A stretch of 64,000 bases of DNA from positions 32,001 through 96,000 of IMG/VR virus record IMGVR_UViG_3300032516_000007; one strand, given 5' to 3'. Made by a program: the position numbers and the translations under genes. Below, in pieces: positions 20,108 to 39,849 of this stretch. Each line of letters starts with the position of its first letter. Within the stretch, counting starts at the first letter, position 1. This DNA comes from a virus. The notes under the pieces were generated by a model. That model saw nothing but the letters and a program-made list of their open reading frames with translations. It was not told the DNA's origin and did not search any database.

Positions 20108-20277
20108 TCAGGAAGTTGCCATTGCGTCCCATCATGAAGTCCAAGCTCACCTCTGATGGTGAGCGGGTACTTCAGATTCTCCAGAGGGAATATCAGATGG
20201 AGCGTGAGGCGGCGGTTCGTTTGATGAGAGATGGCGGGGCCATGTTGGCCCTGGCTATTGTGACTCGGAGTCGATGA
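20104..20277 (+). CDS. Small hypothetical protein (57 aa, not in ORF track)
   Basis: MIRKLPLRPIMKS...; ATGA overlaps at both ends. Confidence 0.55.
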   Translation: MIRKLPLRPIMKSKLTSDGERVLQILQREYQMEREAAVRLMRDGGAMLALAIVTRSR

Positions 20278-20999
20278 TGTTTCTTTTCGTAGCTATTCAC
20301 AAAAGTATCTATCCTGAGAGTTTGTTCATCAGGAAGGGAGAAGAGGAGGGAACTCTTAACCTGCGTGTTTCCAAACCTCAGAAGGTAGCCACACCCCCAA
20401 AGGTTAAGCAGCCTCGTGCTCCGACTGTGGGTGTTCCCTCTCAGGAAGTTCAGAAGCCATCAGCATCCCATCTGGAGAAGGTGTCAACGCCTCACCATCA
20501 GGCTGCCCAAGCTGAAGCTCTCATGAGGATGTCAACTCATGAGTACCAACGAACGGGACGTATGCAACATGCTTTGAAGGCACAGCGTTCCCAGGCGACT
20601 CTAGATCATTTTGCTTCCCAAGGTGTTGTACCAACACCCCAGCATCATGCTGATTGGGTTGATCACTATGGGGAGCATTCAGATAAATATGCAGGATCAA
20701 AAGTTCCTGTTATGTCCCGGTCCCGGTGGCACAAGATTTCTGGTGGGATTGAGTTTTCAGGACATGAACACGAACAGAAGCCAGCTTGGACAGAAGCTCA
20801 GCTACAGGCGGCTACTGCTCCTAAGCCTGAACCCCTACCCGCTTCTGATATTGGATTTGAGAGACCTGAGAAGGTATCTCGTCCGGAGGTTCAGGAAACC
20901 ATTGGGTACATGAAGAAGATTCACAGTTTCAAGAAGAGTCTCATCAATGCTTTGCTGTTAAAGGCATTGAACCTGAGAAGGAGCATTTTGAGTTATTGA
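20274..20999 (+). CDS. Hypothetical head-region protein
   Basis: IHKS and FIRKG leader; FKKS and LLKA tail. Confidence 0.65.
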   Translation: MMFLFVAIHKSIYPESLFIRKGEEEGTLNLRVSKPQKVATPPKVKQPRAPTVGVPSQEVQKPSASHLEKVSTPHHQAAQAEALMRMSTHEYQRTGRMQHALKAQRSQATLDHFASQGVVPTPQHHADWVDHYGEHSDKYAGSKVPVMSRSRWHKISGGIEFSGHEHEQKPAWTEAQLQAATAPKPEPLPASDIGFERPEKVSRPEVQETIGYMKKIHSFKKSLINALLLKALNLRRSILSY

Positions 21000-21012
21000 A
21001 CAGGAGTGGAAC

Positions 21013-21648
21013 ATGAGACCCGACATGATTAGCCCCCGACGGCTTCGTCCTGCTAGTGACGGTTCACACAGTGAGCCCTTGTTTCGGATGACCAGGGAAG
21101 ATCCCCATCGAGTGCTCAAAGGGATTGTGATTCCCCAGACAGTGCGTGGTCAGGTCAATGGAGTGATGCCTGGGGCGTCGGCTCCCCCGAAACCTCAGCC
21201 CTCTCTGTGGGTGATGAGGAAAGCGGATCCATCTCAACAGGAGATGATCCCTGGGGGTCTGGCTTCTGGGAAGGCTGATACAGCTTTCGATCCTGAAGCT
21301 CTCAAGGTGGGGATGAAGGTTGAGCTGGAGCATTCAGGCAACGCCAAGCTGGCTCGGGAGATTGCCAAAGATCATCTGACCGAGGACCCTGATTACTACA
21401 AGAAGCTGGCCAAGATGGAAGCCAAGAAGGCTATGGGTGGGTTGGTGACGAAGTCCAAGGAAATGGAGGGCAAGAAGAGAAGTTGGATGCCCCCCACCGA
21501 GTACAGTCCCGAAGCCTATGGGAAGCCTCCTCATCCAGAGGGTCATGGGTTCATCAGTGGTGAGCCAATCGAGAAGATCAAGGAAAGGTTGGCAAAGTTG
21601 CAACCTCACCGTCCGAAGGGTACAGGGCAATTCAACCTCGACGATTAG
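21013..21648 (+). CDS. DUF5661-like domain protein
   Basis: GMKVELEH....AREIAKDHLTEDPDYYKKLAKME. Confidence 0.75.
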   Translation: MRPDMISPRRLRPASDGSHSEPLFRMTREDPHRVLKGIVIPQTVRGQVNGVMPGASAPPKPQPSLWVMRKADPSQQEMIPGGLASGKADTAFDPEALKVGMKVELEHSGNAKLAREIAKDHLTEDPDYYKKLAKMEAKKAMGGLVTKSKEMEGKKRSWMPPTEYSPEAYGKPPHPEGHGFISGEPIEKIKERLAKLQPHRPKGTGQFNLDD

Positions 21649-21665
21649 GATGTTGGTTCTAGAAC

Positions 21666-22574
21666 ATGCCGATTCTGACGAGGCAGCAAGTTGAGAAGCT
21701 TGCTGAGATCATTGACCAGCACACCACCTGGTTCGTCTGGCGAGCTTTCGGTTCCCAGTACGTCAAGAAAGAAGATCTAGACAAGCTGAAGGCTAGTGGA
21801 CTCCTGCCTATGGATGTGCAGGTGTCCACGATCAAGAATGCCTACGTTTTGGGTCGGCTGGAATCTCTGCTCAAGGAAAACGATTTCAGGAAGTTGACCT
21901 GGGTTCAGCTCCAAGAGGCAGCCAAGGGTCGCTTTACCTCTGTTGACAAGTTCCAGATCGAAGCGGCTGAGATGAGTGCCTTTACGAAGTTTCGTGGATT
22001 GGCTGACGACATCAAGAGTCGTCTCTACGATCGTTTGGCTCAGGCGACGAACAGCACTGTGACTGAAGCTCATGTGCGAGGGACGATCAAGGACATTGTT
22101 AAGGTTGGGGTTGAACTCAGCCAATCCTTCCAGAAGGTGGCCAGAGAGTTGGTGGAGGAGCTGAAGGAACCAACTCGAAATTGGACTCGTGTGGCTGCCA
22201 CGGAGCTTCACACAGCGTGGCAACGGGGTGTGGTCAACACGATCATTCAGAAGGTAGATCTGTACGAGGATTCTGAGGGCATTGATAGCAACGTCTTTGT
22301 TGATCATGACGATGATGCCTGTGAGGACTGCAAGAGGATCTACAACGATCCCAAGACTGGTCATCCCAAGATCATGAAGTTGAGAGACCTTCTCGAGAAC
22401 GAGGGATCCAACTATCAACGGCCATGGCGTCAGAATGCTAAGCCGGTTGTCCCTCCTCTGCATCCCCACTGCTATGGGCGTGTGATCTATGTTCCCCCAG
22501 GTTGGGGGTTCAAGGATGATGGTACGTTCACTCTGATCGATCCCAAGGAAGCTTACCCGGAGCTGAACGAATGA
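21666..22574 (+). CDS. MuF/SPP1 gp7-like minor head protein
   Basis: RVAATELHTAWQRG, DACEDC and PPLHPHC motifs; located in the head module. Confidence 0.85.
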   Translation: MPILTRQQVEKLAEIIDQHTTWFVWRAFGSQYVKKEDLDKLKASGLLPMDVQVSTIKNAYVLGRLESLLKENDFRKLTWVQLQEAAKGRFTSVDKFQIEAAEMSAFTKFRGLADDIKSRLYDRLAQATNSTVTEAHVRGTIKDIVKVGVELSQSFQKVARELVEELKEPTRNWTRVAATELHTAWQRGVVNTIIQKVDLYEDSEGIDSNVFVDHDDDACEDCKRIYNDPKTGHPKIMKLRDLLENEGSNYQRPWRQNAKPVVPPLHPHCYGRVIYVPPGWGFKDDGTFTLIDPKEAYPELNE

Positions 22575-25387
22575 ATCACTTCATCAGCAAGACTATTAGG
22601 TACTATCATCCTTACTTACCAACTCACACCCTTCGTAAGGCTGAAGAGCCCGGTGAGTTCCGTGGTGGGGACCCCGAGGAGATGCGTCTGAAGAAGGAAG
22701 AAAAGCAAACTGAGCTAGGTGAATCTGGGGATGCTGGAGAAGATCAGGGTGGGGAAGAGCCAGATCCTGCCGATGTGGAGGAGGCTCAGCAGGCAGATCA
22801 GGATAAGTCAGAAGGGAAATCTGTCAGTATTGGGAAAGCGATTACCACAGCCATGGGTGCGGTTGAGGCTTCTCCATGGCCACCCAACACAACGGATTAT
22901 CCTTCCAAGGATCGGAATGGTAATCCAGTTCATGACAATGTGGACTTTCACTTTCGTGGGGTCAAACAGCCCTGGATTGAAGTGGGTCCCCCTCGTCAGG
23001 GTCCCAATCAGAAGAAGCCCTGGTCAGAGGTTCTGGGTCTTCCCCCATTGATGGCTCCTTCTGGACCTCCCTATTGGCGTCAGAAGCTTCTACAGGAACG
23101 AAGGGATGAGCTTGGGATGAGTCCCAGACCCAGGCTCATCGAACCTACTGATATGTACGCTATGCAGTCTGTGGCAAAGGCTTTCGATGATCTTCTAGAG
23201 AAGGCAAAGGCGACGCTTGGCGGGGAGTCTGCTGAACACCACCCATATATTCCTGGATATAAGGATAAGATCAAAACACCTGTTTCTTTGAATGTTGATA
23301 GCTTAGATCATGTTCCTGAGCATATAAATAAACATGTCTCTAAGATTGTTGGTCCTCATTGGAAAGATCATATTCATAGATATGTCAAAGAAGTTAACAG
23401 TGGGGAGGGTTTAAGTTTTACTCCTTCTCCTGTTCTTCGAGCTATGGAAGATTGGATGGGAGGTGGTGGTAAGTTTCCACATAAACGAGGGGCAGGGCAG
23501 GCTATTGTGTCCAATGATGTAAAAGCTTTGAATCATCTGACACAACGTGCAGGTCATGCTGGGTGGCATCGGTCTGGTGTAGTTGCTGGAGTTTTATCCA
23601 GGATGCCTTTGAATCATGAAGCTATCAAACATCAAACTGGTGGTAGTATTCCAACGCATCTTTATCGTGGTAGTATGTATGTTCCCCATGCGGCAAAGGT
23701 TGGTGATGTTTTTCATCTTTCTCCATCTTCATTTAGTTCCGGTAAACTTGTGGAGCCATTCAAAGACTATCCAGGGCTTATGAAGATGAGGTTACCGTCC
23801 AGAGGATTTAGTTTGGGTAATCACAGTTTGTGGCCAGAACGGGAGGTACTTGTTTCTGGTCATTATAGAATCCATAATATATCTTATCCTCGTGGTCGTA
23901 CTATGTTTCATGTTGAAGAGATTCCTCATGGTGAAGTTAATAAAGCTATTGAGAATCAATCTCAGCATGAAATGAACCAATTTATAGCTTCTCATCCTTC
24001 TGAGATGGTGTCTGCTAAAGGAGCAGAGGATATTGAGCATGTGGGGAGGGGACTTGGAAAGAGAATGGCTCCCTGTCCCTACGGAGGGGGAATCGAATGC
24101 CTTCGGCATGGTGGAGATGGTGCTGATGCTCATTACCCATCATTCCACCATAAACATGAAGATCAATCCCTGAGTCACGAAGATGTTCTCCATCAGGAAG
24201 CTGGAAAAGATCCTGGGGAACGAACACATAGCCTTAACCAGATGCAGAAGAAGGCTCTTGTTGGGCATGTGATGTCCAGGTACGAAAGTGAAGGTACAGA
24301 TCTAGATAACCCTGATACAAGATCGAAGTACATGAAGACACTTCGGCATATTCACGGTTATTTGGGTAAAGACGCAGAGTCAAACGCATGGAGAAAGAAA
24401 GCCATTTCGGAGTGGAAGTCCAAGATTAGTCAGTATCATGGTTCAGAGGATCAAAAGCCAGAGGGTCACCTGGCCATGGAAGCTGCTGAGAAGCAGATCG
24501 ATGTGACTTGTGATTTTTCAAGGGAAGTCGGTTGGGGTTCTACAGATAGTAAAGAGTCAGATCTTCCAGAGAAGATGTTGGAGCAAGCATTTGGTAGGCA
24601 AATGAGGATTAGTGACTTTGAGAGGGCGTATACTGTCGATGATGATAATCTAAAACTTCCAACTCCTGATGGTGGATATGGGGCAAATATTCATCACATC
24701 AACATTGTCGAAAAGGAACAGGGCCAGTACGAGATCAATGTGATGGGGTCTATTGATTATAGTTATGGTGAGGGTAGTGAGCGGGCAGCTACATTCGTTC
24801 GAGTGATTCACTGTTCTGTTGGTGGTAAGAAGAAGCAAGATCGTTTCATTATGGTTCACCATGACAAGATATTTGTGCTAGATGCTGATCATAGTAAGGT
24901 TGGTGGGCATCAGAACTCTGGATTGAGTACGGATTTTCTCAAGCATAGTGTTATTGAATACCAGAAATGGGGGGTTAATCAGATCACAACAAGTCCGCAC
25001 TGGGTGGGTAAGTACACTTGGGCTCGAATGGGATTCCAGTGGAATGAGGAGGCTGCTGCCACTGTGGGTCGCCATATGACCAAATTTTTGATCAGTCATT
25101 ATGGGATGGAGAAGAAGGCTGCTGCAAAATTGGCGGCTAAATTTGCTGATATGCCATCCAGATTTGCTGTCAAGACGCTTTCTAATCCTCAATTGACTGA
25201 AGATGGTCAGGCATTGTTTAGATCTTTCGAGAAGAGCGAGTACAGATGCAAGCCAGAGGAGGTTGGGAAGGCATTCCTTCTTAGTGATGGTGGTAACCAA
25301 GTTTGGATGAATGGGGGCATGGTGGACATGTCTCGGAAAACCAGTCCTAGTTACCGTCAATTGAGGAAGTATCTGGGTTTGAAGTAG
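22571..25387 (+). CDS. Multidomain protein: R-S-E ADP-ribosyltransferase plus C-terminal GNAT acetyltransferase
   Basis: LYRG (~23660), SSFSS, EREVL (~23837); HQNSGLSTDFLK and GKYTWARMGF (~24908-25036). Confidence 0.8.
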   Translation: MNHFISKTIRYYHPYLPTHTLRKAEEPGEFRGGDPEEMRLKKEEKQTELGESGDAGEDQGGEEPDPADVEEAQQADQDKSEGKSVSIGKAITTAMGAVEASPWPPNTTDYPSKDRNGNPVHDNVDFHFRGVKQPWIEVGPPRQGPNQKKPWSEVLGLPPLMAPSGPPYWRQKLLQERRDELGMSPRPRLIEPTDMYAMQSVAKAFDDLLEKAKATLGGESAEHHPYIPGYKDKIKTPVSLNVDSLDHVPEHINKHVSKIVGPHWKDHIHRYVKEVNSGEGLSFTPSPVLRAMEDWMGGGGKFPHKRGAGQAIVSNDVKALNHLTQRAGHAGWHRSGVVAGVLSRMPLNHEAIKHQTGGSIPTHLYRGSMYVPHAAKVGDVFHLSPSSFSSGKLVEPFKDYPGLMKMRLPSRGFSLGNHSLWPEREVLVSGHYRIHNISYPRGRTMFHVEEIPHGEVNKAIENQSQHEMNQFIASHPSEMVSAKGAEDIEHVGRGLGKRMAPCPYGGGIECLRHGGDGADAHYPSFHHKHEDQSLSHEDVLHQEAGKDPGERTHSLNQMQKKALVGHVMSRYESEGTDLDNPDTRSKYMKTLRHIHGYLGKDAESNAWRKKAISEWKSKISQYHGSEDQKPEGHLAMEAAEKQIDVTCDFSREVGWGSTDSKESDLPEKMLEQAFGRQMRISDFERAYTVDDDNLKLPTPDGGYGANIHHINIVEKEQGQYEINVMGSIDYSYGEGSERAATFVRVIHCSVGGKKKQDRFIMVHHDKIFVLDADHSKVGGHQNSGLSTDFLKHSVIEYQKWGVNQITTSPHWVGKYTWARMGFQWNEEAAATVGRHMTKFLISHYGMEKKAAAKLAAKFADMPSRFAVKTLSNPQLTEDGQALFRSFEKSEYRCKPEEVGKAFLLSDGGNQVWMNGGMVDMSRKTSPSYRQLRKYLGLK

Positions 25388-25395
25388 GGTGATCT

Positions 25396-26688
25396 ATGCT
25401 TAATTTGTTCGATGATCTAATGAAGGCGGCCCGTCGGGTATCTCCATTCCCCGTTCCTCAAGGAATGACCCATGGAGATGTGCTTCGTCATCAAGCAATA
25501 CATGTTCACCGTGCCGGGGGTCTTCCATCCTCCAGGGAGCATCGATTAGCTCTACAGGCGAAACCATCACCTCTTACATCGGAGCATGTGGCAGAAACAG
25601 TATCAAAGAATAAACTTCTTCATCCTAAACATGTAACAGCATTGATTGATCATGCTCATGATCATTTTAGTAGATTGTTGAGGACGCCTGGAAGGATGAA
25701 TGAAGAATCTTACCATAAGGTAATGGAAACTCTTGGTGATGCTGTTAATGTTGCTCATGAGACTAAGCACCCAAAAAGAAATTCATTAAGGAACTTGCAG
25801 GCCAAAGCAATTAGGAATCATGTTGGTTCTTATTCTTATCCAGTAGTAAATACTAGATTCAAAAATATGGAAGGTGTTGTTTCGCATGTTACTCCAAATG
25901 GTTGGGCAGAAGCTAGAGAGAATACTCCAGCACACAAGTCAACTCTTGGTCATTACACTTTGCATAATGTATTCAAAGATAAAGTAAATGATGCTGATCA
26001 TTATTTACATGATTCTTTTAAGATGGATCATCCAGACTATACGTCTAAGGTTAACGATTCTGCTTTGGAATTTGAATCAGATATTAGTTCAAAAGAACAT
26101 CAAAGACGGAGTATTCAAAGTACACATTCTTGGCCACATAGGGTAACTGTATCGGGGGATATCGTTCACCATAGTGGAGGTTTGATTGGTCAATTTAGTA
26201 GAACTTTTGGAAGAGATGTCAATGGTGATCTTCGTGTAAATCATGATGGTCTGAGCTTAGATAAAGAACATCAGGGATATGGTATTTCTAAGGCTCTTAT
26301 GAAATCATCATTGGAGCACTATAGACAGATGGGAGTTAAGACTGTTCACGTTGGGCCAGCCGATGTTGGAAGATACACGTGGGCCAAGATGGGATTCCAT
26401 TGGGGTGAAGATGGGACAAGGCATGTCAAAAGGACGTTACCAAAGTTCTTAGTGGAGCATGGAGAGGATCCCAAGTCTGCTCAAGAGATTACTGATAGGC
26501 ATGCTGACAAGCCATGGGAGATAGCTTCTCTTCATATCGGCGGGAGGCATGTTGGGAAGAAGTATTTGTTAAGAGGAGATGTTTCTGGGCAGAGTGGACC
26601 ATGGGGGTACACTGGAGGTTCTTTGGAGTTGCATCCCGATAACCCTGGATACCAACATATCAGCAAATACGTTGGATTGAATAGGTGA
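25396..26688 (+). CDS. GNAT acetyltransferase domain protein
   Basis: Motif A HQGYGISKALMK; GRYTWAKMGF; paralogous to the C-terminus of the upstream gene. Confidence 0.8.
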   Translation: MLNLFDDLMKAARRVSPFPVPQGMTHGDVLRHQAIHVHRAGGLPSSREHRLALQAKPSPLTSEHVAETVSKNKLLHPKHVTALIDHAHDHFSRLLRTPGRMNEESYHKVMETLGDAVNVAHETKHPKRNSLRNLQAKAIRNHVGSYSYPVVNTRFKNMEGVVSHVTPNGWAEARENTPAHKSTLGHYTLHNVFKDKVNDADHYLHDSFKMDHPDYTSKVNDSALEFESDISSKEHQRRSIQSTHSWPHRVTVSGDIVHHSGGLIGQFSRTFGRDVNGDLRVNHDGLSLDKEHQGYGISKALMKSSLEHYRQMGVKTVHVGPADVGRYTWAKMGFHWGEDGTRHVKRTLPKFLVEHGEDPKSAQEITDRHADKPWEIASLHIGGRHVGKKYLLRGDVSGQSGPWGYTGGSLELHPDNPGYQHISKYVGLNR

Positions 26689-26693
26689 ATTGA

Positions 26694-27449
26694 ATGAAAC
26701 GTCCAATGAAAGAATCGGCTTACGATTTAACTGATCTTGTTGATCAGGATAAATCTGGTGATATTCACTATTCTACTGATGGTACTAGAACCATGAATCA
26801 TGAAGGGATGATTGATTGGGATCAAAGTACCGAAGCGATGGACCTTGGTGACAGTCATCCAGAGGACAAAGTTGTTTTCGATTACGATGGCAATGTGATT
26901 CATGATCCTGAAATGGAGGGTCAGGTAGATGGTGGAGACGAGGAGCCGGAAGCTTCACCAGAAGAGGAGCTTCCTGGTGATTCTAGAACCACGGGAGAAC
27001 CCACCAAGGAGCCTGCCATGGGAACTGAATCTCCAAATCCCCAGCCTACTCAACCGTTAATGGGGATAGCCGCTCAGGGGGGCCAAGAGGAGCCTCAGGA
27101 AGCTCAGGGGGAGCCCCAAGGGGGCCAGGAGACAACTCAGGGGGCTCAGGAAGAAGAGCAGACCCAGGAGGGTCAGGAGCCATCCCAGGAGGGTTCTGAG
27201 GAGCAGGGAGACCTTCTCTCAGTGGATGACCCTGCCCAGGCCCAGCAGCTCCTCCAGAACGCCGATAAGATGGACCGGCCTCACATGCTTCAGGTGGCTA
27301 AACTCATCTGGGGGGATGACTACGAGTTTGAGGACTGGATGACGGACGATTACGTGCGAGCAGACCTGAAGGGGTCACTCGAGGATGTTCTCGAGAGCCA
27401 TGAAGAGGGAGTTGCTCCTGTCGAAGGGGAAGACGAGGAAGAGGAGTAG
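26694..27449 (+). CDS. Very acidic, largely disordered protein
   Basis: D/E/Q-rich composition. Confidence 0.65.
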   Translation: MKRPMKESAYDLTDLVDQDKSGDIHYSTDGTRTMNHEGMIDWDQSTEAMDLGDSHPEDKVVFDYDGNVIHDPEMEGQVDGGDEEPEASPEEELPGDSRTTGEPTKEPAMGTESPNPQPTQPLMGIAAQGGQEEPQEAQGEPQGGQETTQGAQEEEQTQEGQEPSQEGSEEQGDLLSVDDPAQAQQLLQNADKMDRPHMLQVAKLIWGDDYEFEDWMTDDYVRADLKGSLEDVLESHEEGVAPVEGEDEEEE

Positions 27450-27456
27450 ACCGAAG

Positions 27457-30400
27457 ATGATGCTTCCTCTGTGGATCGATCTTGTCAAGGCACGCAAAGG
27501 TGAGCGTGTTGGGGGAAAGTATATCCACAGATGGTGGAACTCTGGTCAGAACAAGTGGAACTACAAGTATTCTGATAAGCCTCACCCCCAGCATGGAATT
27601 CCCTATGTGGCTACTTCCAGCCACACGATTGAGGTTCACCCATCAGTGAAATCTGAAGCCTCACCAGAAGAGGCGTTCCACCAGTCGGCCAGGGCAGAGC
27701 TGAAGCATGGGGAGGAGCAGAAGGCCACATTCAAAAACCCCAGTGGGGAGGTTCTGTTCACGGTCCACGTCAAGCCTGGGCTCGACAATCCTATCCATGT
27801 TGCCCCTCCTGGAACCCAATCAGCTCGGGGGGCTCAGAGGATGGGCAGTTTGCGCCGATTCGAGAATTGGTTTCGTCGGCGTATGACCACACAGACAGTT
27901 TATGATGCTCATGGTGATCCTTGGTTTGATGTGCGGCTTCGTGGTCAGAGTGGTGAGTATCATCGTGAGGGTAAGATTCTGAATCCCAGCGATCGTTTGT
28001 CAGTTCGCTACTACCCTGACAGTCCCTACAATCCCTATCCGAAAGAAGAGACAGCCTGGGTTCCAGGCCCATTTCGTCAGGGCAGCATGAATGAGTGGGT
28101 CAGAGGGGAACATCGAAAACAAAGAGTATCTGGGCAGCGTGTGAAACCTGCCAAAGTTTTTTCAAAGGATGCAAAGCGGCCAGCCACCACGATGCTGGAG
28201 CAGGGGACCATCACTTGGAAGCAGGTTTTTCAACCTAAGAAGGGAAGGGGTGGAAAGTGGTGGAAACGAGTTGCGACGAATCTTAGGAGTAAAGATCAAT
28301 TCTATTCTCGCATTATTCAGGAGCACTTTGGGTTGATTGTGAATCAGGCTATTCGTCAGTTGAAGATCTACTACATCACTGACAAAGATGGTCATCCAGA
28401 TCGAAGAGCAGTGGCTCAGCTACTTGGATACTATGGGGGACCTGGACGCAAGATGAAGGTTCAGGTTGATTCGGATTCTCCTACTCATCGGGCTGTTGAG
28501 AGAGCAGTCAATTCTTATGATCCTGAGAAGGGATGGAGATTCAATACCTACTTGGGTCACTGTGTGTGGTGGGAGCAATTCAAAGAGACCAAGAGGATTC
28601 TGGATCAGATAACTGCCCATAGAAAGCTGATCTCTAGAACTTCAGACAATGCTGGAAACATTCTGGATGAGATTAGTCTGACCCAGGCTGCTCCCGGTCA
28701 TGAAGCGATCATTGGGGCTGGGGTTCATTACCAGACAGCCGAGGAGCACGTATCCCAAGATCAGGAAGTAGTTCAGAATTGGTTGAATCGGCAAGAGGAT
28801 AAGTTGTCACGCTACGTTGTGGCTGAAGATGATCCTGATCGTCAGATGATAGCGTTCAATGCACTTCAGCATCTTGATGCAGTCAAGAACATCCAGCAGG
28901 CCATGGCTTTTGTGGTTCACTATCAGTCCTCGGGTGGTGATGGGTTCGCAGAGCCATTAGAGTCTCCTGAGGATCGCTCAGTGGAGATTGCAACGCCTAG
29001 GCTGACCAAGCAGGAGAAGCTTAACTGGGTGAATCTTGTCACTGAGCACCCAACTCTCACGAATCGAGAGAGGCATGCCCTCCTGGTGCTGGCTCCTACT
29101 GGTGATCTAACTGACATGGTTCCGTTCGATGAAGTTGCATCGAAACTAAACAAAGATCATCCAAAGGAGTTCCCGAGGGAGCCTAGGGTGAATGAGGTGG
29201 TGGACCTTTTCTTGGATGCCTACACGAAACTGGTTGGCTCACCGGAGTTTGAAGCCATGCAGAGGAAGCTGTTCGCTGTTGCCAAGGCTATTGGTATCCT
29301 GAGCAAGGGGATCAAACGGGGAGGGAAGGCTCAGGACTATGAGTACCTTCGCAGAGAGGGCCTGCCTGGTGGCTACAAGTATTTCTACAAGGAGCCTGGA
29401 ACCGAAAACATCATTCGGGGCACAAATGCTCCAGTGGATCATCCTCACCACGATGCGTCCCTTGGGGTGTCTCAAAAGCATCCTCGTGAGCCTGACCCCG
29501 TGAAAGACCCTCAGTATTTTGATCCTCGTAATGGCAGAAAACTCCACCGAGCTGCCCCTGAACATGCTGAGTGGAACAAGAACTACGGTCTGGAGCGTCC
29601 CCTTTCTGCGTGGGTAGCAAAGTGGCCCAAGGCAGATCCGAACAATCCTGATCCCGAATACGCCTACTACCATTCAGATCAGGAAGGTAGAGGGGATCTG
29701 AAGTTCCACGTTAGCAATCGTCATTTCGCTGTGCAGTTGCCCAAGGTGAGGAAACTCTATAGTACCTTGATGAAGAGTAAGGAATTCTCAAGTCGAGTTC
29801 TGGGATTGATGATCTCTCTTCTGGATCAGGTGTATATGCGTCCTGGTAAGAAACAGCATGAGGAGAAGACTGGACATGTTGGGCTGGTTACATTGAAAGT
29901 ATCCAACGTTGTGATGAAGGGTAATGTAGCTACTTTCTCTTATGTGGGTAAGAGGGGAGTGAACATTGTTCACAGTATCACTCTAGATCATCCAACTGCA
30001 AAGATCATGAAGGATCTGATCAAAGCTCCCGGTAAATCACCCAAGGACTATTTGTTCTCTGTTCCGGTCCAAGTTGGTAGGAGAGTCAAATTCCGGGATG
30101 TTGGTTACAACAAGTTGTCCAGGACCCTTGATGAGGCGGTTGGTGTCACTCCCAAGCAATTCAGGATCTATCATGGGACAGAGGCGTTCTCGAGGACGTT
30201 TGAGCAGCTCCTCGAGGGGGTCAAGGGAAGAGTAACCCCCAAGGTTCTAGAAGCACTCACTGAGCAGTCGGCCCTCGAGGTGGCAAGGATGCTGGATCAT
30301 TATGTTGGCAAGGGGGCAGAACAGAAACTTCACAGTCAGACGGCTTTGAAGAGCTATATTGATCCTGTAGTGGTGAGGTCTCTTTATCTCAATGCCCTTA

Positions 30401-30873
30401 CTCCAGATGTGAGCAAGGCATTCAAGCTTCAGGGAACTACAGAATTCCAGGGTCTCCCCATCAGCATTGAAAACAAGAAAGGATCAATTCGTAGGTGGTA
30501 TGATCCCCACGAGAAGAGGAATGGGGTTACTCCCATGCACTTTGATTATGGGTACATTCGTAGGACAGAGGGCATGGATGGAGATCATGTGGATGTCTAT
30601 ATTGGCCCCCACCCTGAGTCCACAATAGCGTTTGTGGTGCATCAGATGAAGGGTCCAGATTTCTTCGAGTTTGATGAAGATAAGGTGATGTTGGGATTCT
30701 CCTCTGCTGATGAGGCCCGATTGGCATACCTCAAACAGTACGACAAGCCTGGGTTCTTTGGTGGGATCACTGCTATTCCGATGGATCAATTCAAGGAGAA
30801 GCTGGCTCAAACCAAAGATCATCCGATGATGCTGAAATCGTTTGTGTGGTTTGGGAATGAGGTGCTTCAGTGA
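27457..30873 (+). CDS. Polyprotein: sigma70-like (regions 2 and 4) + DNA topoisomerase IB + inorganic pyrophosphatase domain
   Basis: Sigma: RIIQEHFGLIVNQA, RAVNSYDPEKGWRFNTY, LTNRERHAL...FDEVASKL. TopoIB pentad: MRPG, VGKRG, KQFRIY, LDH, SYIDP. PPase: ISIENKKGSIR, YGYIRRTEGMDGDHVDVYIG, DEDKVMLGF. Confidence 0.85.
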   Translation: MMLPLWIDLVKARKGERVGGKYIHRWWNSGQNKWNYKYSDKPHPQHGIPYVATSSHTIEVHPSVKSEASPEEAFHQSARAELKHGEEQKATFKNPSGEVLFTVHVKPGLDNPIHVAPPGTQSARGAQRMGSLRRFENWFRRRMTTQTVYDAHGDPWFDVRLRGQSGEYHREGKILNPSDRLSVRYYPDSPYNPYPKEETAWVPGPFRQGSMNEWVRGEHRKQRVSGQRVKPAKVFSKDAKRPATTMLEQGTITWKQVFQPKKGRGGKWWKRVATNLRSKDQFYSRIIQEHFGLIVNQAIRQLKIYYITDKDGHPDRRAVAQLLGYYGGPGRKMKVQVDSDSPTHRAVERAVNSYDPEKGWRFNTYLGHCVWWEQFKETKRILDQITAHRKLISRTSDNAGNILDEISLTQAAPGHEAIIGAGVHYQTAEEHVSQDQEVVQNWLNRQEDKLSRYVVAEDDPDRQMIAFNALQHLDAVKNIQQAMAFVVHYQSSGGDGFAEPLESPEDRSVEIATPRLTKQEKLNWVNLVTEHPTLTNRERHALLVLAPTGDLTDMVPFDEVASKLNKDHPKEFPREPRVNEVVDLFLDAYTKLVGSPEFEAMQRKLFAVAKAIGILSKGIKRGGKAQDYEYLRREGLPGGYKYFYKEPGTENIIRGTNAPVDHPHHDASLGVSQKHPREPDPVKDPQYFDPRNGRKLHRAAPEHAEWNKNYGLERPLSAWVAKWPKADPNNPDPEYAYYHSDQEGRGDLKFHVSNRHFAVQLPKVRKLYSTLMKSKEFSSRVLGLMISLLDQVYMRPGKKQHEEKTGHVGLVTLKVSNVVMKGNVATFSYVGKRGVNIVHSITLDHPTAKIMKDLIKAPGKSPKDYLFSVPVQVGRRVKFRDVGYNKLSRTLDEAVGVTPKQFRIYHGTEAFSRTFEQLLEGVKGRVTPKVLEALTEQSALEVARMLDHYVGKGAEQKLHSQTALKSYIDPVVVRSLYLNALTPDVSKAFKLQGTTEFQGLPISIENKKGSIRRWYDPHEKRNGVTPMHFDYGYIRRTEGMDGDHVDVYIGPHPESTIAFVVHQMKGPDFFEFDEDKVMLGFSSADEARLAYLKQYDKPGFFGGITAIPMDQFKEKLAQTKDHPMMLKSFVWFGNEVLQ

Positions 30874-31865
30874 TCACCACAACTTCAGTTGGAGAGAAGT
30901 TTCAGAAGCCAATCCGAAGATTTGGCAGGTACGTTGCTCTGACTCCAAGTCATCTACATCGGAAGTTGAAGAATGGCCACTACTCAATCATCTCTGCTGG
31001 TGCGAATAGATCTGATCCCAAAGAGAAAGATTTGCCCTGGGATCATCCCATGTTCAAGGAGCGACACGAGAAGCTGAGGCAAGATTTGATCCATCATGGG
31101 CTTGATCACACAGAAGGGATGGGTCACTACGAGGGGAAAGAGCATTCGTTTGTTGTGTACCATGGTCCAGGTGGGAGGACTCCACCGGATGTTTCTGGAA
31201 CCAAATCCTTTATGGTGCATCACGAACATCCCAGTGAGCATGCAACAGTCAGGGACCTTGGGAAAAAGTACAATCAGCAGAGTGTGATTCATTCCTTGGG
31301 TGGTAAGCATGAACTTCATTTTGTGACAGGTGATCATGCAGGGACTCACCACAAGGGAGTGGGCCACGAGATCAAGCCCCATGCCGAAGACTACTATACT
31401 GAGATCAAACACAAGGAACCTCGCTCAACTAAGTTCTCTCTGAACTTAAATTGGGGTACCCATCATCCAGAGCATGAGGCAGTGCTGAAGGCTATGGTTC
31501 CAGAATCAGGAGAGGAAGGGGATGGGGAAGAAGAAGGGAGTTCTCACATCCACCACGTGACTGCTGATCCTCCCGATCAGTTCCCTCATGAGATAGAGTT
31601 TAACCGATGGTTGCACTCTCATCCAATCCATGAGAGTGATCATGAGTGGAATTCAGTCAAGACAATGGGGGGCTTCAAAGATCTCCACATCCCAAGTCCC
31701 GAAGGGGAAGATGATGAGCAATCGTCTGCCGAGTCTGATCGTGCTGGATTCCAAGGTGGTGAACCTGATCAAGGGTCTGATGGGGAGCCCGAGTCCGCAG
31801 AGCCTGAGGACTACTCCTACCTCGACTCTTACCAGCATGGAGATCGAAAGCCTGCTGAAAAGTGA
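30870..31865 (+). CDS. His-rich protein with DUF3293-like domain
   Basis: IISA.....RHEKLRQDL..GHYEGKEHSFVV...DLGKKYNQQSVI. Confidence 0.55.
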   Translation: MITTTSVGEKFQKPIRRFGRYVALTPSHLHRKLKNGHYSIISAGANRSDPKEKDLPWDHPMFKERHEKLRQDLIHHGLDHTEGMGHYEGKEHSFVVYHGPGGRTPPDVSGTKSFMVHHEHPSEHATVRDLGKKYNQQSVIHSLGGKHELHFVTGDHAGTHHKGVGHEIKPHAEDYYTEIKHKEPRSTKFSLNLNWGTHHPEHEAVLKAMVPESGEEGDGEEEGSSHIHHVTADPPDQFPHEIEFNRWLHSHPIHESDHEWNSVKTMGGFKDLHIPSPEGEDDEQSSAESDRAGFQGGEPDQGSDGEPESAEPEDYSYLDSYQHGDRKPAEK

Positions 31866-34800
31866 CCAGCTTGGTTTTGACTACCCCATCCCTGTAGGGG
31901 ATGAGCTGATCAAGGGAAGTCGGCATTCCAAGACTCAACAGCATGCTTGGCAGAAACTTGTTCAAGCTGTGGCCAATATAAAAGGTGCTCCCAATATCGT
32001 AAGACTGAAGGCGGGTGAGGGAGGGTCTATCGACCTGGATGAGCTTGGTGCAGGTGAGGGGGCCTGGGTCACTCCTCATAGCGGTCCTGCTGCTGGTAGA
32101 CACATTCTGGTAGTGAAGAGACCAAATGGTGATCTTGTTCTGCTGGGTGGTCTCAACAAGCCCAACACCAGGATCGATGACAAGACGGACAAAGAGTATC
32201 TGGTTGACGATCAAGGTCGTGATATCCGTGAGGCGTCTCCCGAGGACTACCTCTCAAATCTGGCTAAGAGACACTTTCCATTCAAAGCCAAAGAAAAGCC
32301 TACTTATGAGACTAAGAAAGAGAAGGAGCGTAAAGCAGAAGCTCAGGTTTTCGCTGAGCGAAAGGCGAAAGTTCGAGTTGAGTATAAGGGGGCTCGAAAA
32401 GTAGCTCGTAAGCTAGTCAAGGAGCATCACAAGAATCTTCGTGAAACTCTTGGTCTGGCTGAGGGAACAACTCTCAGCCAAAAGTCGGAAAACAAGATCA
32501 AAGATTCATTTGAAAAGGCTGCTGGGGACACCCTCAAAAGTCTTGGGGTTGAGATCGACAAGGATACCAAGAAGTACATTTCCGAATTTGCAAACCGTGC
32601 GACGGGTAGTTTCCGTCGAGAGCGAAGAAAGAAGATTGATAGAGTCGAGGAGACTATTCTTGACGCTGCCAAGAAGGGTGGGCAGGGCAAGGACATTGCA
32701 GGTCATTTGCAAAAGATTCGTCAGATTGCCAAACAGATCAAGATCAGTGCAGCTCCGGTTCAGGATATGCTCGAGGAGGGTCTTGACGCATTTCGGACTG
32801 GGGACATGGAGAAGGCCAATGAGATTCTCAAAAAGGCTGCTGATGCTGCGGTAGCTGCTTCCTTTGACCATGCAGAACAGGAGGCCATGAAAGAGGTTGA
32901 GGTCCCGTCTGAGGATGCCACATTGGGCAATCAGGGTAACGTACCCAGTGGTGGTACCGCTCCAGAAATGATCGATATGATCGACAAAGATCCTAATGCC
33001 ACCACAGCTCCTTCTGGAATGGATTTCACAAAGGCTCTTTCTAGACTCAAGGGATCACATGAGCGGGAGAAGGAACGGAAGCGACAAGAGAAGGAGAAGA
33101 AGGTAACTCAGGTTCCTCAGTACGCTCAGGTGGATGCTGAGCCCGACTTCGAGACGGAGGCCGATCAGAAGGCTTTCTACGATCAGGTGGGTGAGGCTCA
33201 GAAGACTTTTGCGGCGGCTCGTGTTGCTCAAGATCGCGCCAGGGAGATGATCAACAAGATCTCTGAGGAGGCAGCCGCAGCCGGTGTTGAGGATCGTCCC
33301 AGGACGGCTGTGTCTCCAGAGGAGTTTGCTGTTTCGCTTCAGGATATCGAGACAGCAATGGCTTCAACTGGAGTGACCCCGAAAGAGATCAAGAAGGAGA
33401 TGGCGCTTCTGGAAACGGCTCAGAACTACACTACTCCCAATCAGCCTGGGATGTACACGGTCATCAATGAGTTTTGGAATGATCATTCTGGCAATCTTCT
33501 TGATCCCTACATGAGGATGGGTTCTGAGTATGCTTTGGCTGGTTTGCTGTCAACTCATCTACCCAAGGAGGTTTTGGAGACTCCAGAAGTGAGTGGACTT
33601 CTTGGTAAGATTGCTACCAAGGTTAAGCTGAATGAGAGGACAAATCAGTTTGAGATTCCTGGTGGCAAATCATTGGTTCGGGTCAACTATGGAGGGCTTG
33701 TCCAGAGAACCTCTGCATCTGTTGCTCCGGTGATTGTGGCACGTCGGCTGGCTCAACTGGCTAGCCGTGGGGAAATGGAGAAGGAGAAGATTGCGGAGAT
33801 TGAAAGACGGCAGAAAGAAGAGAAGCTTTCTGTTCGTGAGCGAATGGAGTTAGGCAAGGAAGTGAAGCGGCTTCGGAATAGTCCATTTGCCAAGCATTTT
33901 GGCAATGAGGAATTTAGGAATCTGATCAACTCCGTTGAGAAGAATAACGCTGGGTGGTGGGAGGTAGACCCCTCTGGCCAGCAGATTCATCATCCATCGT
34001 CTCTCCTCTCCACAGAAGAAAAGGCAATGGAGGCTGATCGGAAGATTGCTACGCAGATTGAGTTGATTGAGGCACAAACAAAAACTGGTGAAATGCTGTC
34101 TTCAGAGGACAAATTGGGCATGGAGGGGGAGATCAATCCTCGTAGTAAACTTGGTAGAATGGTTCAGAAGGCAGAGGTTCTTGAGTCTCTGCGTCAGCGG
34201 CGTCAGGAGAACCTGGGTTTGGCTTTGGGATCTCTAGAAACATCAGCTACTCTCGCTGTAGCTCTGCATGAAGCCCATTTGAAAACCAGTGCTGCCAGGG
34301 CTGGCCTTACCAGGGTTCCGGAAGAGACCAGGACAGCTCATCAGCTCAATACCGAAATCAACGATCTGAAATCTCAGATTATTGATCCTAAGCTTTCCTA
34401 TAATGAGCAAAAGGCTTTGGGTAGGAGGGTGAGGGATCTAGAGAGCAGACTTGGGACTATTGTCAGCTCACCAACTATCCCTACCCATGATGATGTGAGG
34501 ATCGATATTCCTGGACCTGTGAGTCATCCTGATCCAGATCAGCAATTACTTCTGAGGCAGACTCAGACGATTGCTGCACGAGATTATGCTCGGAATCAGT
34601 TGGGCCTCGATGAGTCTGAGATTCATGAAGCTGAGGGATCTGCTGTTGCAATACCAAGAGGTAAGCTAGCAGCTATTGGTATTGATAAAAATGGGGCTCA
34701 TGTGAGGTTGCGGATCGGTGGTCCTCTTACCCCTGAAGATGTAGAGCGTGAAGCATCTGAAGCATCTGGGGGGAAGAAAAAGAAGAGGAAGGCACGGGGT

Positions 34801-37329
34801 ATCATGGATAAGCTTCCTCGTATGGAAGCCCATCAGGTTTCTCAGGATCTATATTCTGAGATCAAAAAGAATAGAGAATTGCCCACTGAAAAAGATCATC
34901 CAAAGCTCATGAGGTCTGTTCGTAGATCAGACCCAGATATGCCACTTAGAATGAGGTTGTCTCAGTTCAATTCGTTCAACTTCATGCGAAAACCAAAGAT
35001 GTTTGATGAGAATGGAAAACCCATCAGAGGATCAAAGGGTGGGTTGAATACGATGGTTACGGGTGGTGGCAAGACATTGGCTGCGTTTCTCAACATCGCT
35101 GACAATGTTCAGCGTGGAGAACACATGAATTATGTGCTCTCTGTTCCCAACGACAAAGTTCAGGACTGGGTGAGAGAAGCTTGGGACAAGACTGAGTTCC
35201 ACACAGTTGGCAAGCTTGAAGAGAGGGTGAATAAGGACACTGGTAAGAAGGAGAAGATCCCTCCGAAGCGAGATGCTTTGACCAGGGAGTTAGAGACTGC
35301 TCTCAAAGAACAAGGTGGTGGCAAGAATCCAACCCCAATCGTGATTGCTGTTCCTGATGGTATCTCGATGGCTCATGGCTATGGTATTAAGGGGTGGGGT
35401 AAGGAACAACAGCATGAGTTTTTCAAGAAGATTAGAGATCTTATTCGGGACAACGGTGGGATTGAAAAGAGAAACATCATCTTTGTGACGAACCATAACA
35501 CGGATGGCAACATCCATGCAGAACTGACCAAAACACAGGTGAAACTTCGTACGGGTTGGGGTCATCAGTACGCTCAAGGGGGCTTTATGGCAGGTGGTCC
35601 AAGAGACCAAGCGAAAGAAGGAGATCGTATAGATCATCTTTCTCAGTTGGGAGTTCGTGGTCGGATTGTGGATGAGCCCCAGGTTTTGCTCTCAACGGGA
35701 GAGACAAGTAACCGAGGAGCAGAGGGTAAGCGGATTCTCTCTAGTAGCCATCCAATGGAATACCGACAATTACTGACAGCAACTCCCGCTCGTCGTCAGC
35801 TTGTGGAGGCTTATGATGCAGTGAAGTGGGTTGCCAGCACTCCTCAGATGGATGAAAAGGGAAACTACCTAAGACATATCAAGAAGGATGGAAGTTCAGG
35901 TGCCCATTTATATCACAAGATTGATGGGCTACCCACTAGAGGGGATTTCATGTCCCAGATGGGCGGTCTTGGGCGTGGTACTTTTACGCATGAGCATCTT
36001 CTGGAGGAGGAAGCTCGAAACATGATCGCCAATTGGAATATTGGCGATGAACAACGTGAGCGGCACTTTGCACAACATGTGTTTGATCATTCGGCCCCAA
36101 GATCTGAGACTCAGAAGCAACGACAAATAGAGATTGAACATAATGCTCGTAATATTGTGCGGAGAGAGCTGGAGAAAGAAGCCATTGATCAAAAGAAGCC
36201 AGTCGATAAGCTTGGCAAGATAGAAGAAGCCAATGCTAAAGCACGAGCCCTTCAATACATAGAGGCAGAGCACCGACAGAACATTCATGGACCGGGAGTG
36301 GTTCGCGGTGAGGGTGGAGAGGTCGTGAGGAGGACTACGAAGGAGGCTGGTGTTACTCAGTTGCCTAGAGTCAATGTTGCCGATTGGAAGCACAATTCTA
36401 AGATCAATTCTATGATTCACCAATTGAAGCAATCTGTGGAGGAAGCTCAGAAGAAAGGTAAAACACATCAGACAGTGATTGTGGTGGATGGTCCCGATCA
36501 AGCTGCGGCTGCCAGGGAAGCTTTGAGGACCGTCTACCCACCTCTCGATATTATTGATCCTAAAACTGGGAGGAAAGATCCTTTGCACAAGAAGGCACAG
36601 ATTGGTTGGTTGGGAGCAATGTTGTCAGGACAGGGATCGAAGCGGCCTTCTCCCACTGAGATCGATATCGCAAAGAAGAAGTTCGAGGAGGGTGATCTGC
36701 AAGCTCTGATCATTGATAAGAAAACAATTCAGGGTCACGATCTTCAGATGGCAGACTCCCTTCACATGCTCACACACCTTGATGATGCAGGTACGTTGAA
36801 GCAGGCTCATGGGCGTGTGGATCGTTCTCCCAGAAAAGTAAGAGACGAATCAGAGATCAACAAAGATCTCCTTCACATCATCCGTTCTGACCCCCGTGGC
36901 AAGCCTTCGGCTTTGGTGAGGAGATCTATCAGGGATGCCTTCAATGATGCCCACAAGAAACATCCTGACATATTCCCAGAAGGGCAGGATGTGGGAACTC
37001 TTCCGAATGGGGAGATCAAAAAGCTCCTTAATGCTTATCGCCAGTACGATCACAATGAGTGGCAAGATCTAATGTTGCATTCGGGAGTGTTCACCGAGAC
37101 TCCCATGGATCTGCACAACTACACCACTTCAGATTCTCCTCACGATCAAAAGTTGGAGGAGGATATTGCTCGTGGGTTGGGAACCCAGAGGGTGACATCT
37201 CCAGAGTTGATGAAGCCCCCAACCACCCAGCAGGCTGTCAAGCATGAACCATCTGGGGAGGTGAGCAAAGGTTTGCTCCCCATGTACATTCCATGGAATG
37301 AGCCTCTCTCTTTGTTTGTGAGGGACTAA
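31837..37329 (+). CDS. Giant (~1830 aa) SF2/SNF2-like helicase-ATPase
   Basis: Motif I MVTGGGKT, II IVDEPQ, III LLTATP, V QGHDLQMAD, VI QAHGRVDR; long helical N-terminal half; start uncertain. Confidence 0.8.
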   Translation: MEIESLLKSDQLGFDYPIPVGDELIKGSRHSKTQQHAWQKLVQAVANIKGAPNIVRLKAGEGGSIDLDELGAGEGAWVTPHSGPAAGRHILVVKRPNGDLVLLGGLNKPNTRIDDKTDKEYLVDDQGRDIREASPEDYLSNLAKRHFPFKAKEKPTYETKKEKERKAEAQVFAERKAKVRVEYKGARKVARKLVKEHHKNLRETLGLAEGTTLSQKSENKIKDSFEKAAGDTLKSLGVEIDKDTKKYISEFANRATGSFRRERRKKIDRVEETILDAAKKGGQGKDIAGHLQKIRQIAKQIKISAAPVQDMLEEGLDAFRTGDMEKANEILKKAADAAVAASFDHAEQEAMKEVEVPSEDATLGNQGNVPSGGTAPEMIDMIDKDPNATTAPSGMDFTKALSRLKGSHEREKERKRQEKEKKVTQVPQYAQVDAEPDFETEADQKAFYDQVGEAQKTFAAARVAQDRAREMINKISEEAAAAGVEDRPRTAVSPEEFAVSLQDIETAMASTGVTPKEIKKEMALLETAQNYTTPNQPGMYTVINEFWNDHSGNLLDPYMRMGSEYALAGLLSTHLPKEVLETPEVSGLLGKIATKVKLNERTNQFEIPGGKSLVRVNYGGLVQRTSASVAPVIVARRLAQLASRGEMEKEKIAEIERRQKEEKLSVRERMELGKEVKRLRNSPFAKHFGNEEFRNLINSVEKNNAGWWEVDPSGQQIHHPSSLLSTEEKAMEADRKIATQIELIEAQTKTGEMLSSEDKLGMEGEINPRSKLGRMVQKAEVLESLRQRRQENLGLALGSLETSATLAVALHEAHLKTSAARAGLTRVPEETRTAHQLNTEINDLKSQIIDPKLSYNEQKALGRRVRDLESRLGTIVSSPTIPTHDDVRIDIPGPVSHPDPDQQLLLRQTQTIAARDYARNQLGLDESEIHEAEGSAVAIPRGKLAAIGIDKNGAHVRLRIGGPLTPEDVEREASEASGGKKKKRKARGIMDKLPRMEAHQVSQDLYSEIKKNRELPTEKDHPKLMRSVRRSDPDMPLRMRLSQFNSFNFMRKPKMFDENGKPIRGSKGGLNTMVTGGGKTLAAFLNIADNVQRGEHMNYVLSVPNDKVQDWVREAWDKTEFHTVGKLEERVNKDTGKKEKIPPKRDALTRELETALKEQGGGKNPTPIVIAVPDGISMAHGYGIKGWGKEQQHEFFKKIRDLIRDNGGIEKRNIIFVTNHNTDGNIHAELTKTQVKLRTGWGHQYAQGGFMAGGPRDQAKEGDRIDHLSQLGVRGRIVDEPQVLLSTGETSNRGAEGKRILSSSHPMEYRQLLTATPARRQLVEAYDAVKWVASTPQMDEKGNYLRHIKKDGSSGAHLYHKIDGLPTRGDFMSQMGGLGRGTFTHEHLLEEEARNMIANWNIGDEQRERHFAQHVFDHSAPRSETQKQRQIEIEHNARNIVRRELEKEAIDQKKPVDKLGKIEEANAKARALQYIEAEHRQNIHGPGVVRGEGGEVVRRTTKEAGVTQLPRVNVADWKHNSKINSMIHQLKQSVEEAQKKGKTHQTVIVVDGPDQAAAAREALRTVYPPLDIIDPKTGRKDPLHKKAQIGWLGAMLSGQGSKRPSPTEIDIAKKKFEEGDLQALIIDKKTIQGHDLQMADSLHMLTHLDDAGTLKQAHGRVDRSPRKVRDESEINKDLLHIIRSDPRGKPSALVRRSIRDAFNDAHKKHPDIFPEGQDVGTLPNGEIKKLLNAYRQYDHNEWQDLMLHSGVFTETPMDLHNYTTSDSPHDQKLEEDIARGLGTQRVTSPELMKPPTTQQAVKHEPSGEVSKGLLPMYIPWNEPLSLFVRD

Positions 37330-38837: not shown

Positions 38838-38874
38838 TGGTCATCAACCGAAACTCAACCGGAGGGAACTGAAG

Positions 38875-39819: not shown

Positions 39820-39849
39820 CCCCTCAACCCCAGACACAGGAGAAAGATC

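Follow-up and report, generated by a model that had tools for sequence, protein, structure and literature searches.

The 64,000-nucleotide stretch of DNA analysed here (the window) covers bases 32001-96000 of the 115 kb virus record IMGVR_UViG_3300032516_000007 from IMG/VR, which is judged to be about 68% complete; the source virus is an uncultured large myophage. Between the portal and capsid genes, within the head module, lies a gene that encodes a single polypeptide with a sigma70-like module, a type IB topoisomerase (TopoIB) and a phage-type inorganic pyrophosphatase (InPase). The fusion is conserved among relatives and the catalytic residues of its enzymes are intact. The product may be a cargo protein that is injected into the cell, where the sigma-derived part would engage the host core RNA polymerase and open the first phage promoters, with assistance from TopoIB and InPase. 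Such a function in starting transcription is plausible, and this account of it is held with a little less than even confidence.

The gene occupies a single uninterrupted frame on the plus strand at 27385-30873, according to the list of open reading frames (ORFs) and the translation. Residues are numbered from nt 27385, the beginning of the long frame, so that the true start is M25. The starts of homologues coincide with the ATG at 27457, which is preceded by a GAGGAG Shine–Dalgarno site about 10 nt before it, and by the stop of the upstream gene 8 nt before it; the homologues and the GAGGAG site give a product of 1138 aa. A preliminary description of this DNA had proposed that sigma-like, TopoIB and pyrophosphatase activities are encoded in one ORF at 27457-30873; the frame is intact there and all three domain calls stand. 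The gene and its parts, in order, are as follows.

27457-30873, plus strand: whole fusion gene (1138 aa from M25), comprising leader, N-terminal domain, sigma-like module, TopoIB, InPase and tail
27457-27489, plus strand: conserved 11-residue leader ending LVK/A, a candidate capsid-targeting or propeptide segment
27490-28269, plus strand: N-terminal alpha/beta region (aa 36-295), opening with a basic-aromatic beta-hairpin (27490-27573)
28270-28611, plus strand: sigma2-like domain (aa 296-409)
28501-28590, plus strand: region 2.3-2.4-like block (aa 373-402), the conservation maximum, identified in the HMMER alignment to RpoS
28720-28995, plus strand: predicted three-helix bundle at the sigma3 position (aa 446-537; AlphaFold2 helices 179-207, 211-226 and 230-242 in model numbering)
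28999-29268, plus strand: sigma4-like helix–turn–helix domain (aa 539-628), supported at the level of fold
29296-29394, plus strand: ILSK/G junction (K641) followed by a second basic-aromatic hairpin, a candidate prohead-protease site found by alignment and motif scan
29605-30366, plus strand: TopoIB, N-terminal DNA-binding part and catalytic core (PF01028; nearest structures 2f4q and 6z01; catalytic pentad)
30430-30804, plus strand: InPase (PF18823, Pfam), with acidic clusters DGD..D and DEDK
30835-30870, plus strand: M-x-K/S site (K1151), its M and K invariant, and a short variable tail

The sigma-like module very probably stems from the sigma70 family and retains the strand-capture motif of region 2.3-2.4. 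The signature F/Y..G-Y/W-+-F-x-T-Y...WW is present in the HMMER alignment to RpoS, and the aromatic and basic positions with which sigma70 captures the −10 strand are kept, with a 3-residue insertion ahead of the WW pair. In sigma70 these positions hold the flipped −10 bases and wedge the duplex. Across 11 homologues the block is the best-conserved 30-residue window of the 1138 aa (mean 0.89, 18 invariant positions), being conserved more than either enzyme active site. A phmmer search of aa 274-650 against the PDB returned ten matches, all of them sigma factors, the best being RpoS with E 0.028; with a family profile the sigma match improves to E 0.009 over 75 residues, and the PDB matches of both searches at aa 340-410 are sigma factors throughout. 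The sub-threshold NCBIfam matches, located at region 2.3-2.4, belong to 10-15 families, every one a sigma factor (best E 2e-4). When hhalign set the protein against aligned E. coli RpoS, FliA, RpoH and RpoD, the probability was 86%, rising to 93-95% with the query trimmed to the module, and the aligned stretch runs from the end of region 2.2 through region 2.4. In the ortholog of a relative, the Pfam model Sigma70_r2 scores E 0.003 and 13.9 bits, below the cut-off of 24. The preliminary description had reported matches to regions 2.1 and 2.3; region 2.3 was placed correctly (it starts at nt 28501, aa 373), while the assignment of region 2.1 is ambiguous, HMMER aligning a later YYGGPG stretch with it. 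An exhaustive phmmer search of the sigma-like segment against 1.8 billion representatives turned up the segment only in fragments or members of the family, never standing alone; a multi-stretch match, P0016, was rejected as an unrelated repeat protein.

The predicted structure, with modest scores, extends this likeness beyond region 2.3-2.4. AlphaFold2, given 13 sequences, produced for aa 274-650 a model with a predicted local distance difference test score (pLDDT) of 72, in which the sigma2 fold is recovered. In the model a helical domain is joined by a variable, disordered linker to a bundle of three helices, from which a short linker of low confidence leads to a four-helix domain. Of the top 50 rows of a Foldseek search against the PDB, about 45 are full-length sigma chains, with alignments covering about 340 columns (E 0.01-0.6); the TM scores are low, as would be expected when a multi-domain chain adopts another pose. 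VIA-align places sigma2 toward the N-terminal end of the model and sigma4 toward the C-terminal end, and matches the three-helix bundle to generic helical bundles only. Several phage sigma factors stand near the top of a BFVD fold search, and a language-model comparison gives as neighbours Sigma70_r2/r4 clusters, of which many are viral (score 0.95). The N-terminal domain serves as an internal control, since the same treatment gives only scattered and no coherent fold matches for it, unlike the sigma-like module. The region-4-like segment described earlier at about 29056-29235 corresponds to a stretch at 29056-29238 whose sigma4 likeness has support at the level of predicted fold; hhalign of the sigma3 and sigma4 slices against the E. 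coli sigma factors gave no signal. The earlier sigma call had been made to depend on the segment 28300-29250 returning a sigma fold, as it does in both Foldseek and VIA-align. Five partly independent lines support the sigma-like identity, despite the failed Pfam models and the divergent region 2.2. It is very probable that the sigma2 part is truly sigma-derived, and the full sigma2-sigma3-sigma4 layout is likely to be real.

The identities of the TopoIB and InPase parts, judged from their sequences, are certain. Topoisom_I (PF01028) matches aa 773-973 with E 2.1e-23 (83.3 bits against a cut-off of 23.7) and InPase (PF18823) matches aa 1016-1140 with E 2.4e-37 (128.2 bits against 26.8). The TopoIB pentad R819, K856, R927, H972 and Y991, at nt 29839-30357, is invariant across the 11 homologues, confirming the full R/K/R/H/Y set that had been put at about 29836-30366. 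The nearest solved topoisomerases are Deinococcus radiodurans TopIB (2f4q, E 1e-9) and an archaeal TopIB (6z01); the alignments put the catalytic Arg, Lys and Arg on equivalent residues of both, and the Tyr too in 6z01. The pyrophosphatase domain, previously described at about 30440-30810, coincides with the Pfam match at 30430-30804, and its acidic clusters DGD..D and DEDK are invariant across the same homologues. This domain also matches the last 120 residues of PDB 9b41 chain L, ‘gp19 Portal’ (765 aa), with E 1e-23, and its PHROG matches are annotated as minor head, virion structural and DarB-like. The Pfam searches proposed for each segment in the preliminary description bear out these two enzymes above their cut-offs; the Sigma70_r2/r4 models do not match.

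The same architecture recurs outside this record. A search of 5.8 billion proteins yielded 11 same-length clusters with the same Pfam pair at 43-100% identity; full-length relatives are encoded by two IMG/VR contigs and nine metagenome contigs, and an identical fusion protein is present on several contigs. The full architecture recurs on about 20 independent metagenomic or viral contigs from different samples (42-100% identity), and therefore the ORF is not an assembly chimera, a concern raised in the preliminary description together with the suggestion of a metagenome search. That the ORF is chimeric after all, or that the sigma likeness is a chance motif, is extremely improbable: the failure of the Pfam sigma models is the sole point in favour, and it is opposed by the full-length architecture on those contigs and by lists of sigma-only matches from four different methods. 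Among the phage records searched the protein has no close counterpart. When 22 kb was compared by Megablast with 50,697 phage records nothing matched, and tblastn against phages gave only domain-level matches (InPase, and one TopoIB in phage BCSR5), with no record covering 80% of the fusion protein. In PHROGs only the InPase and TopoIB parts match. A scan of genome contigs had as its sole match a cellular TopoIB in a Myxococcaceae metagenome-assembled genome, and so provided neither a prophage copy nor a clue to the host.

The genomic position of the gene bears on whether its product is packaged. Genes for DNA polymerase A, SSB, a UvsX-like recombinase, SbcCD and the large terminase lie upstream. 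The portal gene (13100-15052) is followed by about 23 kb of mostly large ORFs without annotation, the fusion gene among them, and then by the prohead protease, scaffold and major capsid genes (37956-41298) and the tail sheath gene; nearly all genes are on the plus strand. The fusion protein has three recognisable modules in one polypeptide encoded in the head module, as is characteristic of polyvalent proteins. The position between portal and capsid genes, the InPase clade, the leader and the neighbours fit virion packaging, which they suggest from sequence. An unpackaged late cytoplasmic factor, for example a late sigma factor joined to a replication or transcription topoisomerase and lying merely within the late operon, is improbable. 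Packaging is deduced solely from gene position and domain family, and the lack of a MuF domain would suit such a factor; a late-gene sigma factor, however, is not normally encoded within the late head operon, and the capsid is indicated by the clade of the InPase, by a conserved leader that looks cleavable and by neighbours of cargo type.

The neighbours also bear on another explanation, in which the protein is ordinary polyvalent anti-defence cargo and the sigma-like region serves only as a helical domain for DNA binding or structure, any RNA polymerase function having been lost. TopoIB would then act on the entering genome by relaxing it, protecting it or allowing a topology-dependent escape, and InPase would break down pyrophosphate (PPi) or signals derived from nucleotides. 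SAM-lyase-like, GNAT-like and SF2 helicase neighbours resemble anti-restriction or host-modifying cargo, the PHROG matches of InPase include DarB-like proteins, and nucleotide signals are among the proposed targets of InPase (PMC5512222). This explanation does not readily account for the invariance of the region 2.3-2.4 block, for a topology ordered as sigma2/three-helix/sigma4 or for nearest matches that are consistently sigma factors, and it is considered unlikely.

Three sites of the form [ILM]-x-K/[AGS] divide the polypeptide: K35/A36 after the leader, K641/G642 at the sigma/TopoIB junction and K1151/S1152 before the tail. The residues flanking them are invariant or conservatively substituted in all homologues, and the L, K and A of the leader are invariant across 11 of them. 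After both the K35 and the K641 site comes a basic-aromatic hairpin, and the two hairpins are alike. Homologue P0006 runs on into a SAM-lyase domain and P0010 and P0012 run on into another domain; the extra domains of the relatives join exactly past the K1151 site. Internal proteins of phage T4 have cleavable targeting leaders, which the candidate sites of the fusion protein appear to resemble. These conserved sites suggest that the prohead protease could cut the protein between its sigma-like and TopoIB-InPase parts. Cleavage at K641, if real, means that the three activities share one ORF and not one protein in the capsid, which would hold a sigma-like protein of about 69 kDa and a TopoIB-InPase enzyme of about 58 kDa. 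Leaders or junctions with a hydrophobic residue, any residue and K, followed by A, G or S, also occur in the neighbouring cargo ORFs (20274-37329) and at the N-terminus of the prohead protease; they could be protease sites or capsid-targeting leaders.

Neither the 115 kb record nor a 77 kb relative, both of them incomplete, yielded an RNA polymerase domain of the single-subunit or multisubunit type. At positions 1386-1934 of the full record (G000; window −30614 to −30066), after a CobT/vWA-like gene, there is a 182-aa ORF orthologous to a 175-aa ORF of a relative (31% identity, E 2e-29), and the latter has a near-threshold Sigma70_r2 match of 20.1 bits against a cut-off of 24. The product of the 182-aa ORF is probably a small stand-alone phage sigma factor. 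Together with the lack of a detected RNA polymerase, this ORF suggests that the phage family probably redirects the host polymerase with sigma factors of its own, and an additional, injected sigma-like protein is coherent with such a strategy. A 222-aa ORF with a weak Sigma70_r4 match (G000 29050-29718) was rejected as a sigma factor and is regarded as a generic helix–turn–helix protein.

The events can be pictured as follows. The fusion protein would be phage head cargo of the ‘polyvalent protein’ kind, loaded into the procapsid via its short N-terminal leader. The prohead protease would trim it, and perhaps cut it into sigma-like (about aa 36-641) and TopoIB-InPase (about aa 642-1151) parts, and both parts would be ejected into the cell together with the DNA. 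On the entering genome the sigma-like module would bind the host core RNA polymerase and open the first phage promoters, TopoIB would relax the supercoils arising from transcription and from the ejection of DNA with non-rotating ends, and the pyrophosphatase would clear PPi. Packaging, cleavage, RNA polymerase binding, promoter specificity and the cooperation of the three parts are what we infer in this scheme. The stronger statement, that this is the first virion-delivered sigma factor, injected with TopoIB and a pyrophosphatase and capturing the host core polymerase for early genes during DNA entry, is advanced as a tentative possibility that is rather to be doubted than believed; if it is true, early genes need neither a host sigma factor nor a phage polymerase.

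Several observations weigh against an injected sigma-like starter of transcription. The Pfam models Sigma70_r2/r4 are absent from the fusion protein at E ≤ 1 and from the sigma-like segment at E ≤ 10; no match for the fusion protein reached the Sigma70_r2 (PF04542) gathering score, the genome scan included, and Pfam at E ≤ 10 on aa 1-273, 274-650 and 651-772 separately found nothing. Sequence likeness to sigma factors is confined to about 40-70 residues, and in addition to the insertion before the WW pair there is one of about 30 residues within sigma2. The positions of region 2.2, which had been described as divergent, read D-S-D-S-P-T-H in place of the DLIQEGN type, and are conserved in the family but differ from those of sigma factors, in which this region is the chief point of contact with the beta' clamp helices. 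The module could not be linked to any promoter motif; motifs over-represented in the genome are unconserved in relatives. A phage RNA polymerase could be missing from view because of the incompleteness of the record. Pfam and PHROGs detected no MuF domain or other direct packaging marker in the fusion ORF or the upstream ORFs. Separation by the protease would also end the physical coupling of sigma and topoisomerase.

Part of this evidence would suit a sigma-like module that acts as a docking or decoy element for RNA polymerase and not as a promoter-specificity factor, either taking up the sigma site of the host core enzyme and so silencing host transcription, or simply tethering the enzymes to the transcribing polymerase. 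Both region 2.2 and the sequence of sigma4 have diverged strongly, the search for a matching promoter motif gave none, and a fusion with enzymes would make sense as a tether. The strongest selection, however, is on the region 2.3-2.4 strand-capture motif, which is superfluous for mere docking, and the candidate protease site would uncouple the tether; a docking or decoy role is accordingly given a low probability.

The type of carrier is already known. Iyer, Burroughs, Anand, de Souza and Aravind (2017) described an InPase clade specific to phage polyvalent proteins, which are probably packaged, and proposed that InPase clears PPi and so aids early transcription or replication (PMC5512222). 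The present protein resembles those polyvalent proteins in being a large multidomain protein of the head module with an InPase of the hairpin-less clade, for which packaging, injection and a PPi-clearing role have been proposed; it differs from them in that MuF, DarB, methylase and MPTase domains all went undetected. The text of that study does not speak of sigma at all, nor of a TopoIB domain, and mentions topoisomerase once, within the title of a cited reference (PMC5512222). The 9b41 portal provides direct structural evidence for a domain of the same InPase family in heads, fused there to a portal and not to TopoIB and a sigma-like module. Transcription proteins delivered with the DNA are exemplified by the N4 virion RNA polymerase, phiKZ-type virion polymerases and T4 Alt (PMC5512222, PMC7318152, PMC7598289); the concept is common to the present proposal, but those proteins are polymerases or ADP-ribosyltransferases, not sigma factors. 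A packaged, ejected or injected sigma factor was not found described in the literature searched. The preliminary description had recognised no such architecture in described phages, and no precedent came to light in either the polyvalent-protein catalogue or that literature; the sigma-like and TopoIB components of such cargo, and their combination, are likewise undescribed there.

With the group 3 and 4 sigma70 factors and phage sigma factors, the module of about 330 aa shares the region 2.3-2.4 motif and, by prediction, sigma2 and sigma4 folds arranged canonically; it differs in failing the Pfam models, in its divergent region 2.2 and in its sigma2 insertions. It also differs in its setting, between a 260-aa domain and two enzymes, and among head genes rather than early or middle genes. 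The TopoIB part has the catalytic pentad and core fold in common with D. radiodurans TopIB (2f4q), the vaccinia enzyme (1a41) and jumbo-phage TopoIB, and is distinguished from these enzymes by its fusion to a sigma-like module and InPase and by about 10 extra residues inserted between His and Tyr. Vaccinia carries TopoIB in its virion, where it aids early transcription. If the injected-sigma proposal is true, the linkage of the sigma-like factor to TopoIB and pyrophosphatase would echo, in a bacterial virus, this virion-borne early-transcription kit of poxviruses. Three ways in which phages start transcription are known: host sigma70 promoters, an injected RNA polymerase (N4, phiKZ and crAss-like phages) and injected modifiers (T4 Alt). 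Seizing the host polymerase with a sigma-like factor that is injected would add a fourth way, and a cheaper one. Even as a polymerase-docking or DNA-melting module, the sigma-like domain would, together with TopoIB, join the repertoire of capsid cargo. The system lends itself to testing: its three activities can be separated, its cleavage sites are predicted and about a dozen variants occur in nature. Stand-alone TopoIB has been noted in a few jumbo phages (PMC7824862).

Two over-represented motifs were considered as promoter classes of the sigma-like module and rejected. The palindrome TGRTTCTAGAAYCA (core TTCTAGAA) has 36 copies in the 115 kb record, where about two are expected, and many lie just upstream of genes.

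5722, 8297, 9933, 37861, 49978, 53226 and 59751: example window positions of the palindrome TGRTTCTAGAAYCA

Four copies have TAnnnT exactly 6 nt downstream, on the plus strand only. The motif is present in the 72%-identical relative L011 and unenriched in more distant relatives. It was rejected as the promoter class because it is palindromic and unconserved in relatives whose sigma block is invariant; its palindromic core fits a dimeric regulator, of which it is probably an operator or promoter element. At G000 30388-32172 (window −1612 to 172) seven same-strand copies of CTCATACATACA and one overlapping one-mismatch match lie within 1.8 kb, in an ORF-poor region, interleaved with CCCTACCCT repeats and four palindrome copies, and one copy of CTCATACATACA extends into an (ACAT)n run. 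This motif is not conserved in the 77 kb relative, and the cluster was rejected for the same lack of conservation in relatives that keep the sigma block invariant; the region may serve as an origin or as a cluster of promoters.

In the 15-27 kb cargo block, the sole confident domain outside the fusion protein is DUF5661 (Pfam E 1.7e-13) in a 211-aa ORF at 21013-21648. The 430-aa ORF directly upstream of the fusion gene, at 25396-26688, has weak matches to GNAT acetyltransferases, below cut-offs (E 5e-4 to 5e-3). The gene directly downstream is the following.

30870-31865, plus strand: SAM-lyase-like gene (Pfam S-AdoMet_lyase, E 2.9e-5, below cut-off)

Its GTG start overlaps the TGA stop of the fusion gene, which suggests translational coupling. 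The next ORF, at 31630-37329, encodes a 1899-aa protein without Pfam or PHROG matches, in which a long helical, charged N-terminal half precedes motifs of an SF2/SNF2-type helicase (Walker A GGGKT, DEPQ and a late QxxGRxxR). A 1799-aa counterpart of this protein occupies the same place in relative L002.

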